In this document: positions 7,919-20,467 of the stretch, piece by piece
Numbering within the stretch: the first letter of the stretch is position 1
Layout of the letters: each line of letters starts with the position of its first letter
DNA from: an uncultured archaeon
GTDB taxonomy: Archaea > Thermoproteota > Nitrososphaeria_A > Caldarchaeales > Wolframiiraptoraceae
Length of the DNA stretch: 64,000 nucleotides
Direction of reading: 5' to 3'
Assembly (NCBI GenBank): GCA_938083505.1
Contig: CALKCF010000006.1
Location: 64,001 to 128,000, forward strand
The notes under the pieces: model-generated
Told to the model about the DNA's origin: nothing
The model's input: the letters and a program-made list of their open reading frames with translations, nothing else
Database searches by the model: none
Translations under genes and position numbers: made by a program

Positions 7919-10900
7919 TTGTATGGGATACCACCTGAGTTCGCTGAATACTATGCCCGGATTGTGGAAAAGGTCAAAGAAGAACACAGGATAGCATCCG
8001 AAGCCAGGAAAAAGTTGGGCACAATTATTGACGAGGTCGAGACGATAATCGCTGAAGACATGGCTGAGAGGGTAGAGTTACTTGTTGGTCCTGAAGGTAT
8101 AGCTGAGAAGATAAGATCTTTAAAAAAGAAACTTTCAAGAGAACGTCTAGCATTTAAGCTTGCAGAGGATATCATATACACTTCGATAGGAAAGCTGAAA
8201 GAAGAGGTTGCTATTAAGCAGGCGCTCTGCACCGCGCTCGCAGTCATGACACCGCCATGCATAACTGCTGCGCCGAGTGAAGGTATTGCAGATGTGAAGA
8301 TTAAAAAGAATCCAGACGGGACAAATTATCTGGCAGTTTACTTTGCAGGTCCTATAAGGGCTGCTGGCGGAACTGAGCTAACAGCAACCGTCATATTGGC
8401 GGACTATATCAGAAGGTTGCTGAATTTGGACAGATATAAACCTACGGAGGAGGAGATCAAACGGTTCAAAGAAGAGCTTAGGACTTATGTACGTATGGTT
8501 AGCAGATTTCAGTATAACGTTCCGGATCACTTGATAGAAAAAGCATTAAGAAACATACCCGTGGAGGTTACGGGCGTTCCTACGGACAACATTTTGGCAC
8601 CATCTTATAGAAACCTACCTAGAGTTGAGACAAACTACTTAAGAGGTGGTGCCCTGAGGGTCATAAACGACGGTATAATCGGAAGGGCAAGAAAAGCGCT
8701 TAAGCTTGTCGAGATGCTCAGTTTATCCGGATGGGAATGGTTACGTGAGGTTGCTGAGGAGTTCAGCAGAATGCACTCTGCTAGCTCAGCCGAAGAGAGC
8801 TATCTAAACGAGGTCATAGGAGGTAGACCCGTGTTTTCCTTGCCAGATGCATTTGGCGGATTCAGGTTGAGATATGGCCGTTCTTATAACACAGGCATGG
8901 CAGCCGTCGGCGTACATCCTATGACCATGAAAGTACTTGAAGGTTACATAGCAACGGGCACACAGTTAAAGCTCGATTATCCCGGAAAGGGCGGTGTCGC
9001 GATGCCAGTAGACACCATTGAGCCGCCAAGGGTGCTACTAGACGACGGGTCTGTTGTAAAGGTTGATAACGACTTAACTTATGCCGAAATAAAGAACAAG
9101 ATTGTAAAGATTCTTTTCCTTGGCGATATTCTAATATCATTTGGGGATTGTGTAGAGAATAATGTTGAACTTAGACCAGTCGGTTATTGTGAAGAGTGGT
9201 GGGCACTGGATTTAAAAAAAGAAGTAACGAGAGCTGGTGAAATTGAAAAAGTCGCGAAAATGCTGAACATAGACTCCGAGCGTCTCAGATTCTTAGTAGA
9301 GAAACCCCTTCTCATCAAACCAACGGATAGGGAAGCTTTAAAGTTGAGCTTCAAACTAAAAGTTCCGCTTCATCCAACTTACTGTTGGTTTTGGGAAAAC
9401 ATCAGTGTGAATGAATTAAAGATGTTAAAAGACTGGTTAGAGAAATCTAGGACGCGATGCAAAATTTATAATGGAAAGGTTTGGCTACCGTTTGATGAAA
9501 CGATACACAACATCTTGATCAAAATGGTACTCGAGCATCGGATCGACGGAAAGTATGTGGTTCTCGACATATCGAGCTATAGGGTGCTTTTAGCACTTCT
9601 GGCACAACCGAGAAATGTGCTGAATTCCGTAAACGATACTCTGGAGGCAATATTTGTAATTTCAGGCATAACTCTAAGAAGAAAAGGCGAAACTTTCCTA
9701 GGCACGAGGATGGGCAGGCCGGAAAAGGCGGGAATGAGAGTAATGAAACCACCCGTGCACGTGCTATTCCCAGTAAGTCTTAAAGGAGGTGCGTCAAGAG
9801 ATTTAATGAATGTCGTTAAATCTGGAGAAAGAGTGCTCGTAGAATTAGCCCGACTTGAATGTCCAAAATGCGGCTCCATAAGTTGGAAATCCGTTTGTGA
9901 AAACTGCGGCGCAAAAAGAAGACCAGTAGGTATATGCACAAAATGCTCGTTAAAAAATTATAACATTGAGATTAAAAATTGTGAAAGATGCGATGGCAAG
10001 ATTTCTTATACAGATAAGTTTTCTCTGGACATTAGGACAGAATTTTTGCAAGAATGTAAACGTTTATTCACTGAAATGCCTGAAAAGATTAAAGGGGTTC
10101 GTGCACTCACAAGCAGAATCAAAATTCCGGAGGATATTGCGAAAGGAATTCTTAGGAGCAAATACGGCCTGTCTGTTTACAAAGATGGGACCGTCAGGTT
10201 TGACGTGACGAACGCACCACTTACACATTTTACACCATGTCAAATCTCAACAGATGTTAGCGTTCTAAGAAGTTTAGGCTATACCCATGATGTTGAGGGT
10301 AAGCCATTAACGAGCATGGACCAGATATGTGAGCTGAAACCCCAAGATTTAATAATACCTAGAAAAGCTGCTGAGCACCTCATTAAGGTCTCTAAGTTCG
10401 TAGATGAGGTTTTGGAAAAGCTCGCTGGTATGCAACCTTACTATATGTGTAATAAACCTGAGGACTTGATCGGTAAGCTAGTTGCATCGCTTTCCCCACA
10501 TACTTATGTAGCAACTGTAGGGAGGATTATCGGTTTCATTGACGCTGACGTATGTTTTGCGCACCCCCTCTTTCATGCATCGAAAAGGCGTGATTGTGAT
10601 GGTGATGAGGATAGCCTAATGCTTTTGCTTGATGTTTTTATAAACTTCTCTAGGATGTACTTGCCTGACAGAATTGGTGGAAAGATGGATGCCCCCTTAC
10701 TAATAACACCAATAGTCTATCCAGATGAGGTTGATGAACAGGCTCATAATTTGGATATCGCCTACGCATATCCGTTAGTGTTGTATGAGGCAGCAGAAAA
10801 GATGGAACCATCTGCCAAATTATCAAACGTTATCGCAACAATAAAATTGAGACTTGGATCTGCTGAACAGTACGGTGGATTTGGGGTTACGCATATAACA

Positions 10901-12703: not shown

Positions 12704-13590
12704 AAATGTTAACGGCCATAATACTTGCAGGAGGTCTATCAAAGAGATTTGGTGGAGATAAACTGCTTATTGAAATTAACAACACGACAGTGCTCATGAG
12801 GGTTGCAAAAGCGGTTTATGAGGTGGCAGATAAAGTCCTGATTTCCGTAAAAGACGAAATGAAGGGGCAACTGTTAATGGAAAAACTAAGAGATCTTTGT
12901 CAAGGAATCGTGACAGACCTAGAAGATGTGGAATTTGGCGGACCCCTTAGAGGCATGATTAGTTGTATTTCGAAAGTTGGTTTAAACGAGGTGCTTTTTG
13001 TACCAGGCGATATGCCTTGGCTGGAGGCAGACCCTCTGGTTTCTTTTCTCGAGACATGCAAATCCTACGATGCTACAGCGGGTAGCATAATATGGGATAA
13101 CGGGCTGGTAGAGGTGCTAATCCAGTACCACAGCAAAAATACCAAATTGGAAAAGATTGTCGATGCATGTAAGGCAAGAGGCAAGATTGCTAGGGTCTCC
13201 GATATGCTTAGGGCCTCTGAAAAAACATGTTATATACCTGCTGGTAACTTAACAGAAAAGCCATTAGTCTTCAACAACATCAACACATTAGAAGATTTAA
13301 TGAATCCTAAACCAAAAGGGCGTTTAACAAAAGGAGAGGTGGTCACTGTAATGTCAAAGCATTTTTGGAAGGCTTTAGAATCTTGGAAGTGTAAGAACTT
13401 TACGTCGGCCGCAGAGCTCTATGAATGCGAAGGAGATATCAATGCATCATTCGGCGTGAATCATATAGCTCTACATGCGTATATAGATGCCTCTATATGT
13501 TTTGGTTTAGGATCCATACATAATAGTAATTTAGAGGAGAAAATAAGTCGGGAAAGGTTAAGGCTCAATCTATCCCGTAATGAAGCTTGA
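12700..13590 (+). CDS. mobA: Molybdenum cofactor guanylyltransferase with C-terminal extension
   Basis: IILAGGLSKRFGGDK, GPLRG, PGDMP, FNNINTLEDL. Confidence 0.85.
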   Translation: MKMLTAIILAGGLSKRFGGDKLLIEINNTTVLMRVAKAVYEVADKVLISVKDEMKGQLLMEKLRDLCQGIVTDLEDVEFGGPLRGMISCISKVGLNEVLFVPGDMPWLEADPLVSFLETCKSYDATAGSIIWDNGLVEVLIQYHSKNTKLEKIVDACKARGKIARVSDMLRASEKTCYIPAGNLTEKPLVFNNINTLEDLMNPKPKGRLTKGEVVTVMSKHFWKALESWKCKNFTSAAELYECEGDINASFGVNHIALHAYIDASICFGLGSIHNSNLEEKISRERLRLNLSRNEA

Positions 13591-14152
13591 TCAAAGAGAG
13601 CAACATTTTGTAAACTTCGTCCTCATTCAACCCAGTCGTATCTAAAACGACGTCAAACGGGCTCAGATCACTTTCGAGCGAAATCCCATACAATCTGTTG
13701 TATATGTCTTTACTTTCCGAGTCACGCTTCCTCAACACCTCCTTTGCAACATCTACTGGCAACCCGCTCCTCTTTGAGAGTCTCCTTGCTCGTTCGTCCT
13801 CGCTAGCCTTAAGCCATATTTTGTAGCCATCTTTCAGTAACCAAGGTAGGACCCAGCTATCGATCACGACGTCGCCTTTAGATGCCAGCTCAAGTAGTTT
13901 TGCATCGACGAGCTTATCAAACTCTGGGTTTGACAACCTTTCTTCGAGAAACTTAAGACCATCCGGTTTCTCCCACCAGTCTTCGCCCCCTGGTCTATAG
14001 CCCCTTTCGATGGCTAGCTGTTTTAATGCCTGGCCACCAGAAATGTATTTAATGTTCAAAGCTTTGGCAAGTCTTCTAGCAACTGTACTTTTTCCTGTGG
14101 CGGCAAGACCGCTGATACATATTACTAACCTTCCTCTGCGGCAGTTTTCCAT
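13565..14152 (-). CDS. cmk: Cytidylate kinase (archaeal type)
   Basis: ISGLAATGKSTVA, ISGG, KIWLKAS..RARR, YGI, DVVLDT. Confidence 0.9.
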   Translation of the reverse strand: MENCRRGRLVICISGLAATGKSTVARRLAKALNIKYISGGQALKQLAIERGYRPGGEDWWEKPDGLKFLEERLSNPEFDKLVDAKLLELASKGDVVIDSWVLPWLLKDGYKIWLKASEDERARRLSKRSGLPVDVAKEVLRKRDSESKDIYNRLYGISLESDLSPFDVVLDTTGLNEDEVYKMLLSLIKLHYGID

Positions 14153-14453
14153 ACTTCTTAGTTTGACACGCGAATTAATAATTTTGGGCGTATATTAAGG
14201 AACACTTGTAACCTCAAAGCTTACCCTAAACTGTAAGTGTTGTTGGACCTTTACGTCAAAACACTTTTAGAAGCTTTATGATGCACTTATGCTAAGCTAG
14301 AAACGCGTCCAAAAACTATTTATAAAACACTTTTCTCTTAAATTAAATATAAAGTAAAATATTGTAGAAACTACTGCAGAGGCTGGAAATCGATACCTAA
14401 TTGTTGTAATGAACAGTCGTTTTGCCATCTATAATTTTCTCTCTAGAGGATTT

Positions 14454-14663
14454 ATGAAAAGAGCCCTATATTGAGGATTCCTTGTTAAGGGAGAAAAATG
14501 CAATCTTTGTGGTTCATATGCAGCAAATTGCCCGTTTGAGGCTATACAAATTCCGACACATACTAGCGAGCAGTTAGAAGCACAGATGAAAGTAATGCTG
14601 TCAGATATAGGAACCAAGCCTTTCGGACCTTATCAATTTATGAATAATGTTTGGACTGTTTGA
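14454..14663 (+). pseudogene. Decayed 4Fe-4S ferredoxin-domain fragment resembling an HdrA C-terminus
   Basis: MKRALY*GFLVKGEKCNLCGSYAANCPFEAIQIPTHTSEQLEAQMKVML; CxxCxxCxxxCP with third Cys as TAT; in-frame TGA at 14472. Confidence 0.6.
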
Positions 14664-16308: not shown

Positions 16309-16590
16309 TTGAAGGCCGAGATCGGAAGAATATGTTTTAAGATTGCAGGTAGAGAGGCTGGACAAAAATGCGTAATCGTCGGTGTTATTGATAAGAATTT
16401 TGTTTTGGTGACAGGCCCGAAAAATTTGACCGGTGTTAGACGCAGGAAAGTGAACGTTTCACATCTAACCTTTACGCCGTATAAAATTAACATAAAGGAG
16501 AACGCATCAGACGAAGAAGTTCTAAAAACTATACAAGAATCCGGGCTTATGGATTTTATGAAAGAGGAGGCGAAGGTTAAGTTTGAATGA
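16309..16590 (+). CDS. rpl14e: 50S ribosomal protein eL14
   Basis: GRICFKIAGREAGQKCVIV..IDKNFVLVTGPK..TGVRRRKVN. Confidence 0.96.
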   Translation: MKAEIGRICFKIAGREAGQKCVIVGVIDKNFVLVTGPKNLTGVRRRKVNVSHLTFTPYKINIKENASDEEVLKTIQESGLMDFMKEEAKVKFE

Positions 16591-17634
16591 CGTAGTTGGG
16601 AGCCTTGTTCCACCCTGGCAACATGAGAGAAGGACAATAGTGAGGCTTGAGGCTGAAACCAACCCAAATTATGGATACAATCCTTATGAGAGACCTATCA
16701 GGATGCACCTGAAGTTAGGCGTTATTAATCTCGATAAACCAAAGGGACCTACAAGCCACGAAGTATCCTCGAAAATAAAAGATCTGTTGAGAGTGGAACG
16801 GGCTGGTCATGGCGGGACCCTAGGAGGCTTTAAGCCTGGGGACATCCGGCCGTTTCCGGCGTGTTGCCAATATTGTTAGAAGAATCTACAAAATGCGCTA
16901 AAGCAATTATGCAAGCCGGAAAAGAATATATCTGTCTGATGAGGTTACACGATGACGTTTCTGATGAAAAACTCTTGGAAGCAGTAAAGCTCTTCACCGG
17001 GCAGATATACCAGATACCACCAGTAAGATCGTCCGTTGTGAGAAAACCAAGGGTGAGAACGATATATTCAGCAGAGATAATCGAGCGGAGCGGCAGGGAT
17101 GTTTTGATGAAAATAGCTTGTTCTGGTGGAACTTATATAAGAAAATATTGTCATGACTTAGGGCTATACTTAGGATGCGGAGCACATATGCAGGAACTCA
17201 GAAGGACAAGAGCTGGACCCTATGAGGAGGGGTTTTCGTTCAGCTTATTGGATGTTTATGAAGCCGTTAAACTTTATAAAGAAAATGGTGAGGAGCGTAT
17301 GTTGAGGGACGTCGTTCAACCTGTAGAGACTGCTGTCAAATTATTACCAAAGGTCTACATATTAGATTCAGCTGTTGATGCTATATGTCATGGAGCTAAC
17401 TTAACGGTAGCAGGTATATCTAAACTTGATGATGAAATAAAACGCGGCGATGAAGTGGCTATCATGACATTAAAAGGTGAGCTCGTTGCACTTGGCAGAG
17501 CACAGATGAGTACTGAAGAGATTTTAAACATCCTCAAGGGAATAGCTGTGGATATTGAAAGGGTTATCATGGATAGGGGTACTTATCCTTCCGTCTGGAA
17601 AAGGGGCAGCAAAGATTTTAATGGTTCAATTTAA
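16583..17634 (+). CDS. cbf5: H/ACA RNA-guided pseudouridine synthase Cbf5, join(16583..16823,16844..17634), 343 aa after splicing
   Basis: LDKPKGPTSHEV, GHGGTL|D|PAVSGVLP restored by removing 20 nt, GTYIR, ELRRTR, PUA domain. Confidence 0.95.
16824..16843 (+). other. 20-nt archaeal BHB-type mRNA intron in cbf5
   Basis: GAGGCTTTAAGCCTGGGGAC; central helix CCCU/GGGG, bulges AG|G and AC|A; excision recreates the GAT Asp codon and the frame. Confidence 0.93.
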
Positions 17635-17658
17635 CCTAAATTTTGGAAGTAACTTATC

Positions 17659-17744
17659 GCCGGGGTAGCCTAGCGGATAAGGCGCAGGCCTTGAGAGCCT
17701 GTGACCCTATGAGGGTCGCCTGGGTTCGAATCCCAGCCCCGGCG
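17659..17744 (+). tRNA. tRNA-Ser(UGA)
   Basis: Acceptor GCCGGGG/CCCCGGC, anticodon arm CAGGC-CT TGA GA-GCCTG, long variable arm, TTCGAAT loop, G discriminator; no intron, CCA not encoded. Confidence 0.96.
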
Positions 17745-18225
17745 TCAACTACCACTGTTGGATTTTTGAACGAACCTACTTTCTGACAATTTCTCATTAT
17801 GATCTGAAAACGTCTTCATTCAAACAAGTGACGAAGTGTGAGCTGTTAGCAGATGGTATAAAGATTCTGGAACGTGAGAAAAACCGTAATGGATGTGGTA
17901 AGACATGGATGTCACTCTTCGTCTATTTTGTTTATATGCCTAGTTTTTAGCTGATAGACAGACAGCAGCAAAACTACCCTCATGATTGTCACCATTATCA
18001 AGAGGTAATTTGAGGTCCTAATGTAACTCTTTTCTGAAGGCATATCGCTTAAATTTTCCACGAGTCATTCTAAGGTCATTAGCTTTGTTGCGATTTCATG
18101 ATACGTAGAACATACCAATATTCGAAGTTTTGTTCAAAGAATTGAAAATTAATTTCCCAAATTATCAAACGATTTGAATTTATCTTAAAGGTTATAAGGT
18201 TGTATGATAATCTTAGGAGCTGAAC

Positions 18226-19341
18226 ATGGCAAAATGCCTACTTTGTGGTAAAACTTCTAACATAATATCGAGCAGCACCGGTTTCTGTGTTGAATGTATA
18301 AGGAGCAGGCCAGACGATGTCATCCCAACCATAATGCAGAAACATGCTAATGCGAGAATCGTGTACAACTTACCTTCTGAGCCTCCTAAGGGTACAGGGG
18401 TGAAGTGTACGATATGTGCTAACGAATGCGTGTTAGGTGATGGTGAACGTGGCTTCTGTGGCATTAGGTGTAACGTAGGAGGAAAATTATATTCGCTCTC
18501 TACACCTGAAAAAGCACCACTCTACTATTATCTTGACCCACATATAACAAACTGTTGTGCTGCTTGGTTCTGCCCTGCAGGCACAGGTTCTGGATATCCA
18601 AAGTATGCATGTAGAAACGGTCCCGAATACGGATACTACAACTTGGCAATATTCTTTTACGGATGTAACTTTGATTGCTTATTTTGTCAGAATTGGAGCC
18701 ATAAGAATGTAAGCGCTTCGTCACAAGTCACTGCAGAAGAGCTTGTCAACATCACCTTGAAGAATGATAAGATAACATGCTGGTGCTTCTTTGGAGGCTC
18801 TCCGGAACCACACTTGCCGTTCGTCATAAATGTTTCGCGAAAAGTTCTGGAATTAATAAAAGATAAGAGGGTCATGAGGATATGCTTCGAGTGGAATGGT
18901 TGCGGCAATGAGCATATGGTTAGAAAGTGTGGCGAATTAGCATTCGTTAGTGGTGGAAACATAAAGTTCGACCTGAAAGCTTTTGATCCTACACTTAGCT
19001 TGGCGCTAAGCGGTGTTAAAAACGACAAAGCTTATAAAAACTTTAGCATGCTATTCAATGAGTTTTACAGAGAAAGGAAAGAGTTGCCCGTCCTTACGGC
19101 TACCACACTTTTGGTTCCAGGATACGTTGATGAAAAAGAGATAGAGGGTATTGCTAAGTTCATATCGGAACATGATGAAAACATACCATATAGTCTACTG
19201 ATTTTTCATCCGGATTACATGATGCGCGACTTAACGGTAACACCCATCTCTCAAGTAAAAAAGTGTGTAGCTACAGCAAAGAAATACCTAAAAAACGTCA
19301 ACATAGGAAATGTGCATCTCCTTAGCATCGCACCGCCTTAG
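18226..19341 (+). CDS. Radical SAM protein, PFL-activating-enzyme-like, with Cys-rich N-terminus
   Basis: GCNFDCLFCQNW; CTICANEC..GFCG; TTLLVPGY; FHPDY. Confidence 0.85.
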   Translation: MAKCLLCGKTSNIISSSTGFCVECIRSRPDDVIPTIMQKHANARIVYNLPSEPPKGTGVKCTICANECVLGDGERGFCGIRCNVGGKLYSLSTPEKAPLYYYLDPHITNCCAAWFCPAGTGSGYPKYACRNGPEYGYYNLAIFFYGCNFDCLFCQNWSHKNVSASSQVTAEELVNITLKNDKITCWCFFGGSPEPHLPFVINVSRKVLELIKDKRVMRICFEWNGCGNEHMVRKCGELAFVSGGNIKFDLKAFDPTLSLALSGVKNDKAYKNFSMLFNEFYRERKELPVLTATTLLVPGYVDEKEIEGIAKFISEHDENIPYSLLIFHPDYMMRDLTVTPISQVKKCVATAKKYLKNVNIGNVHLLSIAPP

Positions 19342-19345
19342 TTAT

Positions 19346-20467
19346 TTAAGATACAGGTTTGTAGACAATGTTTAAAGATTCAGCAGATGAGTAAGCACCT
19401 TCCATTTCCTGAAACGTTGGTCTGCGTGCTATATCTGGATATTCGTCAGGCCTCTCGGCAACGATGTATTCAGGCCTATACTGCTCCATTATATTTACTA
19501 GAGCCCTAGGACAATTCTCGGATATCCACCTTAGGATAGGCTTAGTGCAACATTCCAAGTGGTTTGGCAATACAAGGTGTCTGATTATCATATCACCAGA
19601 GTCATGTGCTATTTTATGGTTCCTCGATACTATCTCAAAGTAGCGTGGAACTTTAGAAAGTCTGATTGCGCAATTGTCGTTTCCATATTTGAAGTCCGGT
19701 AACCATATATCTATCACATCAACTAAGAGCTTAATGCTTTCTAAAGACATGTACATATTACTATTCCAGAGCATCGGCACATTCGTCTCAAGATACTTAA
19801 TACCTTCAAGTATCGTGTAAAGGTTTGGTGTTGGTTCACCACCGACGAAGTTTATATTCAGTGCACCAGTAGTTCTCAGCTCTTTCATTATAAGAGCTAG
19901 CTTTTTTCCATCAATCTCTATACCGTTAAGGGGATCTTGCGATATATCCCAATTCTGGCAAAAAACACACCTAAAGGTGCAACCTGCAAAAAATATAGTC
20001 CCTGAACCACCATAACCTACTAAAGGCGGCTCTTCTCCAAAATGGTGAAACCATGTAGAGACCCTGGATTTGTTATTGACCCTACAAGTGCCGAGCTTTT
20101 TATCTTCGTATCTATTAACTTTGCACTTCCACTCACAAAAATGGCAATTTTTTAATATCCTTTTAGCGATCTCAACTTTTAGATCAACGTAGTTCACAGC
20201 CACAGGCTTCAGCTCATCTAATAGCATCCTATCATTCTTTATATCGTTCAAGATTTCGTTAAAGATTTTAGTGAGTCTTTCATGTTCTTCCCAAAGCCTT
20301 TCGTTCGAACTGGACTCTATGTTTACTTCGCAAGGTATCCTTTTCGCTATGAGAAACTTTGCGGGCTTTAAATTACTCATAACGCTGTAATACCACTTAA
20401 GTCTCTCCCTGACCTCCCGGTTCTGCCATACCGAGGTTGCGAATAGACGCCTCACGGGTGCGCTCAA
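19346..20467 (-). CDS. Radical SAM protein, PflX family
   Basis: CHFCEWKC, GSGTIFFAGCTFRCVFCQNWDIS, PDFKYGN, IIRHLVLP, NIMEQYRP. Confidence 0.88.
   Translation of the reverse strand: MSAPVRRLFATSVWQNREVRERLKWYYSVMSNLKPAKFLIAKRIPCEVNIESSSNERLWEEHERLTKIFNEILNDIKNDRMLLDELKPVAVNYVDLKVEIAKRILKNCHFCEWKCKVNRYEDKKLGTCRVNNKSRVSTWFHHFGEEPPLVGYGGSGTIFFAGCTFRCVFCQNWDISQDPLNGIEIDGKKLALIMKELRTTGALNINFVGGEPTPNLYTILEGIKYLETNVPMLWNSNMYMSLESIKLLVDVIDIWLPDFKYGNDNCAIRLSKVPRYFEIVSRNHKIAHDSGDMIIRHLVLPNHLECCTKPILRWISENCPRALVNIMEQYRPEYIVAERPDEYPDIARRPTFQEMEGAYSSAESLNIVYKPVS

Follow-up and report, generated by a model that had tools for sequence, protein, structure and literature searches.

The stretch of DNA analysed here (the window; 64,000 nt, positions 64,001 to 128,000 of contig CALKCF010000006.1, assembly GCA_938083505.1) carries a plus-strand cbf5 gene, which the list of open reading frames breaks into a 98-aa ORF (16583-16879) and an out-of-frame 257-aa ORF (16861-17634). 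Pfam assigns the DKCLD domain to the first ORF and the TruB_N, TruB_C_2 and PUA domains to the second. As a previous sequence-only reading of this DNA had claimed, deletion of 20 nt (16824-16843) gives a single 343-aa Cbf5 frame reading ...AGHGGTLDPAVSGVLPILL, in which G and AT are joined to form the codon of the catalytic aspartate. The GTLDP motif is present only after this excision, and its combination with DKCLD, TruB and PUA domains identifies the product as a Cbf5/dyskerin pseudouridine synthase. Without excision, the N-terminal ORF reads Gly in place of Asp and meets a stop codon 18 codons later, so that the 98-aa product lacks the catalytic residue, as that reading had also stated. The features of the locus are listed in Table 1.

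Table 1. Features at the cbf5 locus, in window coordinates
Feature	Position	Strand	Remarks
rpl14e	16309..16590	+	upstream of cbf5, overlaps cbf5 start
cbf5 exon 1	16583..16823	+	DKCLD to GHGGTL, plus G of Asp codon
Outer (exon-exon) helix, 5' strand	16811..16817	+	predicted fold
Central 4-bp helix, 5' strand (exon)	16818..16821	+	predicted fold, covariation
5' bulge, 3 nt	16822..16824	+	predicted cut after second base (16823), rule from PMC2738675
Putative BHB intron, 20 nt	16824..16843	+	20 nt at this site in 7/7 Terraquivivens
Inner hairpin, 5 bp + 3-nt loop	16825..16837	+	predicted fold; compensatory variant in genome G003
Central helix, 3' strand (intron)	16838..16841	+	predicted fold, covariation
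3' bulge, 3 nt	16842..16844	+	predicted cut after second base (16843)
cbf5 exon 2	16844..17634	+	AT of Asp codon, rest of TruB_N, TruB_C_2, PUA
Outer helix, 3' strand	16845..16851	+	predicted fold
tRNA-Ser(UGA)	17658..17746	+	starts 23 nt past cbf5 stop

The start codon of cbf5 appears to be a TTG that overlaps the rpl14e stop codon, and the two genes probably share one transcript. Because the tRNA-Ser(UGA) gene follows so closely, the cbf5 transcript may double as a pre-tRNA. Two convergent radical SAM genes with unbroken frames lie just downstream (18226-19341, plus strand; 19346-20467, minus strand). The cytidylate kinase gene and rpl14e-cbf5 are usually neighbours in archaeal operons; in this window a cytidylate-kinase-like ORF, judged from its sequence, is found on the minus strand (13565-14152), apart from rpl14e-cbf5 (regions compared, 13565-14617 and 16309-17634).

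Sequence comparison assigns the host to Ca. Terraquivivens (Wolframiiraptoraceae, Caldarchaeales). Among named loci, those of Ca. Terraquivivens species are nearest, with identities of 82-87%, and six genomes of the same genus are equally distant. Relative to other Terraquivivens, dN/dS is 0.08-0.15 for exon 1 and 0.05-0.09 for exon 2 at dS 0.5-2, which on these alignments indicates that purifying selection acts on both exons. The gene is single-copy, a search for a second cbf5 in the host genome (98.5% complete) having found none. This genome also encodes two EndA paralogues, RtcB, Nop10, Gar1 and PolD; the PolD large subunit lies at about window position 7946, in agreement with the earlier claim that the split gene sits in a PolD-encoding lineage, and this lineage is not crenarchaeal.

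The sequence-only reading had drawn a canonical bulge-helix-bulge (BHB) motif across the junction, and every element of it recurs in our predicted fold: a CCCU/GGGG central helix, bulges AGG and ACA, an inner stem of 5 bp capped by a UUA loop, and an outer helix that carries one G.G mismatch. The junction region folds better than 200 of 200 shuffles (z -2.7). The exact BHB (-19.6 kcal/mol, p 0.23 at 37 C) competes with a slightly more stable fold in which the 5' bulge is absorbed into the stem (-20.0, p 0.44), and the two remain close in energy up to 80 C. Cuts placed between the second and third base of each bulge fall exactly on the borders that restore the frame, as had been proposed.

Comparison of 139 distinct cbf5 junctions, with introns of 11-41 nt, showed that all four central pairs are kept in 134. 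Pairing in register was found in 99.1% of cells, compared with 38-65% when the partner strand was slid, and the pair at the wobble position of the Thr codon occurs as C-G (90), U-A (36) and A-U (8). The Watson-Crick fraction among 112 junctions, uncorrected for relatedness, was 0.97, whereas shuffles averaged 0.60 and did not exceed 0.72. Genes with the intron preserve outer pairs -7 to -10 at frequencies of 85-100%, whereas pairs -8 and -10 form in just 13% and 32% of intronless genes. The flanking synonymous codons are restricted in intron-bearing genes only (mostly GGG, ACC/ACT, CTA and CCC).

A pre-mRNA intron in cbf5 has been described for the Sulfolobales and Desulfurococcales (Watanabe 2002; Yoshinari 2006; Yokobori 2009, PMC2738675). 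Its splicing was shown experimentally, its size is 16-44 nt, and it was traced to the ancestor of these two orders (PMC2738675); a 2020 paper lists the cbf5 of Crenarchaeota as the sole further case of an archaeal mRNA interrupted by a BHB intron (PMC7714728). The statement in the earlier reading that such introns occur in crenarchaeal cbf5 is in line with these papers. The Terraquivivens insert shares with them the gene, the insertion point after base 1 of the Asp codon, the BHB motif, a length within the published range, the lack of an ORF and a host with two-subunit EndA. It differs in that the host belongs to the PolD-encoding Caldarchaeales, in its full helix-bulge-helix-bulge-helix motif, where many crenarchaeal cbf5 cases are relaxed, and in its first base, G in place of the usual A. 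Archaeal tRNA and rRNA BHB introns, which are processed by EndA and RtcB, have the same 4-bp helix, two 3-nt bulges and cut after the second bulge base, and their ligated product is likewise a stem with a 7-nt loop; in contrast to these, the cbf5 intron sits in coding sequence, so that the fold constrains exon codons, and it contains no homing endonuclease ORF. The BHB site in the 5' UTR of Haloferax HVO_1309 is also an mRNA substrate of the splicing endonuclease (PMC7714728), but it leaves the reading frame intact, whereas the cbf5 intron breaks it. By position, motif, size and machinery, the Terraquivivens insert belongs to the known cbf5 intron.

The catalytic EndA subunit of the host has A. 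pernix EndA as its best match (E 2.5e-50) and aligns without gaps over the crenarchaea-specific loop around K44, which has been tied to broad specificity (PMC3241643); from the presence of two paralogues, the enzyme is likely to be hetero-oligomeric. ARAGORN called many host tRNAs with introns or odd anticodons, which suggests non-canonical tRNA introns. Splicing has been shown for crenarchaeal cbf5, whereas for Terraquivivens we infer it: by analogy with Aeropyrum and Sulfolobus, 16824-16843 is almost certainly a live BHB pre-mRNA intron. The two-subunit EndA would cut after 16823 and 16843, RtcB would ligate G to AU, and the spliced mRNA would encode the complete Cbf5, catalytic Asp included. 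Unspliced RNA would yield the dead 98-aa product, and Cbf5 output would then be limited by the tRNA-splicing machinery. The earlier statement that pseudouridylation would depend on tRNA splicing stands for the part that requires Cbf5; it does not extend to the Pus10-dependent part, since the host genome encodes a separate, intact Pus10.

Spliced forms were sought by sequence pattern and by protein search. A Terraquivivens-specific spliced-junction pattern had no match in JGI contigs. A broader spliced pattern matched four contigs, three of which represent one intronless Bathyarchaeia lineage on contigs of up to 84 kb and are genomic. Searches for the full-length spliced protein of Terraquivivens, Jordarchaeia and Bathyarchaeia returned only fragments or members of intronless lineages.

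The insert is widespread. It is 20 nt long in all seven Terraquivivens genomes and 13-23 nt long in 16 of 16 genomes from the three other Caldarchaeales families, while cbf5 is uninterrupted in 18 of 18 genomes of other Wolframiiraptoraceae genera. A sample of 401 Thermoproteota genomes, 358 of which yielded the cbf5 motif, contained 199 with an insert at the same G|AY site; this and the other distribution counts describe samples in which related genomes are not independent. Within Bathyarchaeia, 45 of 46 named loci have an insert of 17-40 nt. Carriers that could be named through neighbouring proteins include EX4484-205, Bathyarchaeota B24 and Culexarchaeum, and whole families among those searched are free of the insert (for example f5, 0/56, and f12, 0/29). 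The shortest case, in locus L157 (genome G044), is 11 nt, below the published 16-nt minimum.

Asgard archaea carry the insert as well, in 19 of about 124 genomes with the motif (141 sampled), from Atabeyarchaeia, Jord/Freyarchaeia and Sifarchaeia (Borrarchaeum). The central helix is perfect in all 16 Asgard carriers that were fetched, and three of the inserts sit on single contigs of 2.8-3.6 Mb. One further Asgard match (G442) was rejected as a chance match. Two second copies of cbf5 (G480:C131, locus L236, and G068:C32) resemble binning contamination from other lineages, and the former, which groups with Thermoproteota, was treated as such. Among 151 Halobacteriota genomes, the search pattern, which misses some variants, gave two matches, both judged by eye to be non-BHB and due to chance. 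The published two-order origin does not fit this distribution. The occurrence in a PolD-encoding lineage, which the sequence-only reading had singled out, is real but is not isolated, being one of a phylum-wide set that reaches Asgard. Our literature searches, which covered few subscription papers, found no report of a cbf5 intron outside Sulfolobales and Desulfurococcales, and no account of one in Aigarchaeota, Bathyarchaeia or Asgard. Thus, the kind of intron is known, and its taxonomic breadth is unreported in the searchable literature.

The breadth of the distribution could reflect old inheritance followed by loss or repeated insertion. Parsimony on a 113-row Cbf5 tree required 17 losses under a single gain and 33 gains under a gain-only model; the tree is a quick one with a weak backbone and many open forks, and these counts depend on the relative rates of the two events. 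Intronless clades are nested among carriers, and in one intronless Bathyarchaeia lineage codons of the intron-bearing type are joined exactly at G|AT, as would be expected after a recent, precise loss. The intronless Bathyarchaeia genes at L177-L179 and L261 retain such flanking codons and appear to have lost the intron recently and precisely. Judged from these sequences, the probable history is inheritance from the ancestor of Thermoproteota, followed by precise loss on many occasions, one of them in the genera that are sister to Terraquivivens. A TACK-Asgard origin of the intron is conceivable but falls somewhat short of probable.

Repeated gain, in Thermoproteota and separately in Asgard, would leave the splicing mechanism the same and would follow from a site predisposed to reverse splicing, since a short stem, made by the GT..DP codons on either side, is already present at the insertion point: the -9/+4 pair is present in 100% and the -7/+2 pair in 65% of genes even where the intron is lacking. 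Consistent with such gains, the patchy Asgard carriers fall into several separate groups among intronless relatives and include classes with extreme tRNA-intron loads (PMC11291895), and a 2026 preprint infers repeated gains of Asgard tRNA introns (10.64898/2026.10.13.758758). Against this, gain alone costs about twice as many events within Thermoproteota, the nested intronless clades and the loss footprint are left to be accounted for, and in every group most introns have A as their first base and a run of purines at their 3' end. Since the intron is partly forced by its pairing to the GTL codons, however, shared intron sequence is no proof of common descent. We regard repeated gain as the less likely history, though a serious competitor, above all for the Asgard carriers.

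In favour of a transfer of the intron-bearing gene from Sulfolobales or Desulfurococcales to Terraquivivens, the published introns come from those two orders only and the other genera of its own family lack one. However, Terraquivivens Cbf5 nests in Caldarchaeales (SH-aLRT 99), where the intronless genera form its sister group (96/98). A clade of Terraquivivens with the Sulfolobales-like sequences is rejected by an AU test (p-AU 0.014), and the other three families of the order carry the intron. Whole-gene transfer, to which the tree and the AU test apply (transfer of the intron alone lies outside their reach), was therefore rejected and is very improbable.

Programmed ribosomal frameshifting, which others have proposed for split cbf5 genes (noted in PMC2738675), would join the two overlapping ORFs without splicing. 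It gains some interest from the finding that a Haloferax Cbf5 with an Asp-to-Glu substitution is active in vivo (PMC5029457), since the unspliced codon is Glu in 117 of the 139 junctions. Cbf5 of S. solfataricus and S. acidocaldarius has been reported to contain Glu instead of the catalytic Asp (PMC5029457), which probably reflects mis-annotation of the intron. In Terraquivivens, however, the codon encodes Gly if left unspliced, and the downstream frame is W-G-H-P, with His before Pro, so that neither a frameshift nor translation in two pieces would supply Asp or Glu at the catalytic place. Insert lengths occur in all three phases, and an in-frame stop is present in all 34 introns of 3n length (16 family-level groups), where shuffles predict 11.9, and in 63 of 104 introns of other lengths (Fisher p 8e-7, uncorrected for kinship; per-group rate 0.56). 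Ten additional 3n introns read by eye each contained an in-frame stop. Frameshifting also leaves the covarying BHB pairs unexplained, and we consider it highly unlikely. The stops in all 3n introns suggest that full-length unspliced Cbf5 is selected against. That the split gene is a pseudogene or an assembly error, as might be suspected in an uncultured genome and given that cbf5 can be deleted in Haloferax, can practically be dismissed in view of the same 20-nt insert in seven independently assembled genomes, the low dN/dS (0.05-0.15) of both exons and the retained H/ACA partner genes.

The prediction that annotation pipelines would miscall such genes was borne out: all database proteins at least 73% identical to exon 2 are fragments of 225-256 aa without GTLD. 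Among the best 120 Bathyarchaeia-like Cbf5 matches, 118 are truncated, and the N-terminal Cbf5 piece of Culexarchaeum is annotated as 'hypothetical protein'. Mis-annotation of Cbf5 as fragments has consequences for gene-content and phylogenomic studies of the dyskerin lineage.

A genome-wide search for further split genes, also suggested by the sequence-only reading, proved not to discriminate without homology, as de novo BHB and frame-joining scans gave 49 and 1564 candidates, mostly chance. Two candidate mRNA introns were noted outside the window, both on the minus strand. A 31-nt BHB insert in the P-loop of EF-2 (AH|VDHGKT; G000:C3:139926, L263) recurs, with a covarying central helix, in 6 of 7 Terraquivivens genomes and in all four of family f3; the other 45 Caldarchaeales matches lack it. 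A small Lrp/AsnC-like gene (G000:C3:98857, L262) contains a BHB-like insert of 25 nt, which recurs at 25-27 nt in five of five Terraquivivens relatives; the copy in genome G006 has a compensatory change in its central helix.

The presence of the cbf5 intron across most classes of Thermoproteota and several of Asgard means either a far older origin than was published or a recurrent insertion hot spot. The many independent losses would provide material for studying how introns are lost. The rule that no 3n intron lacks a stop points, in a way open to test, to a harmful unspliced product or to incomplete splicing. Most tentatively, the intron may predate the TACK-Asgard split and may have been kept as a gate that ties H/ACA pseudouridylation to tRNA splicing, selection preventing unspliced RNA from ever giving full-length Cbf5, with EF-2 and Lrp/AsnC gated too in Terraquivivens; this combined proposal we consider rather doubtful. 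If it is true, EndA-dependent splicing of coding sequence existed in the archaeal lineage leading to eukaryotes.
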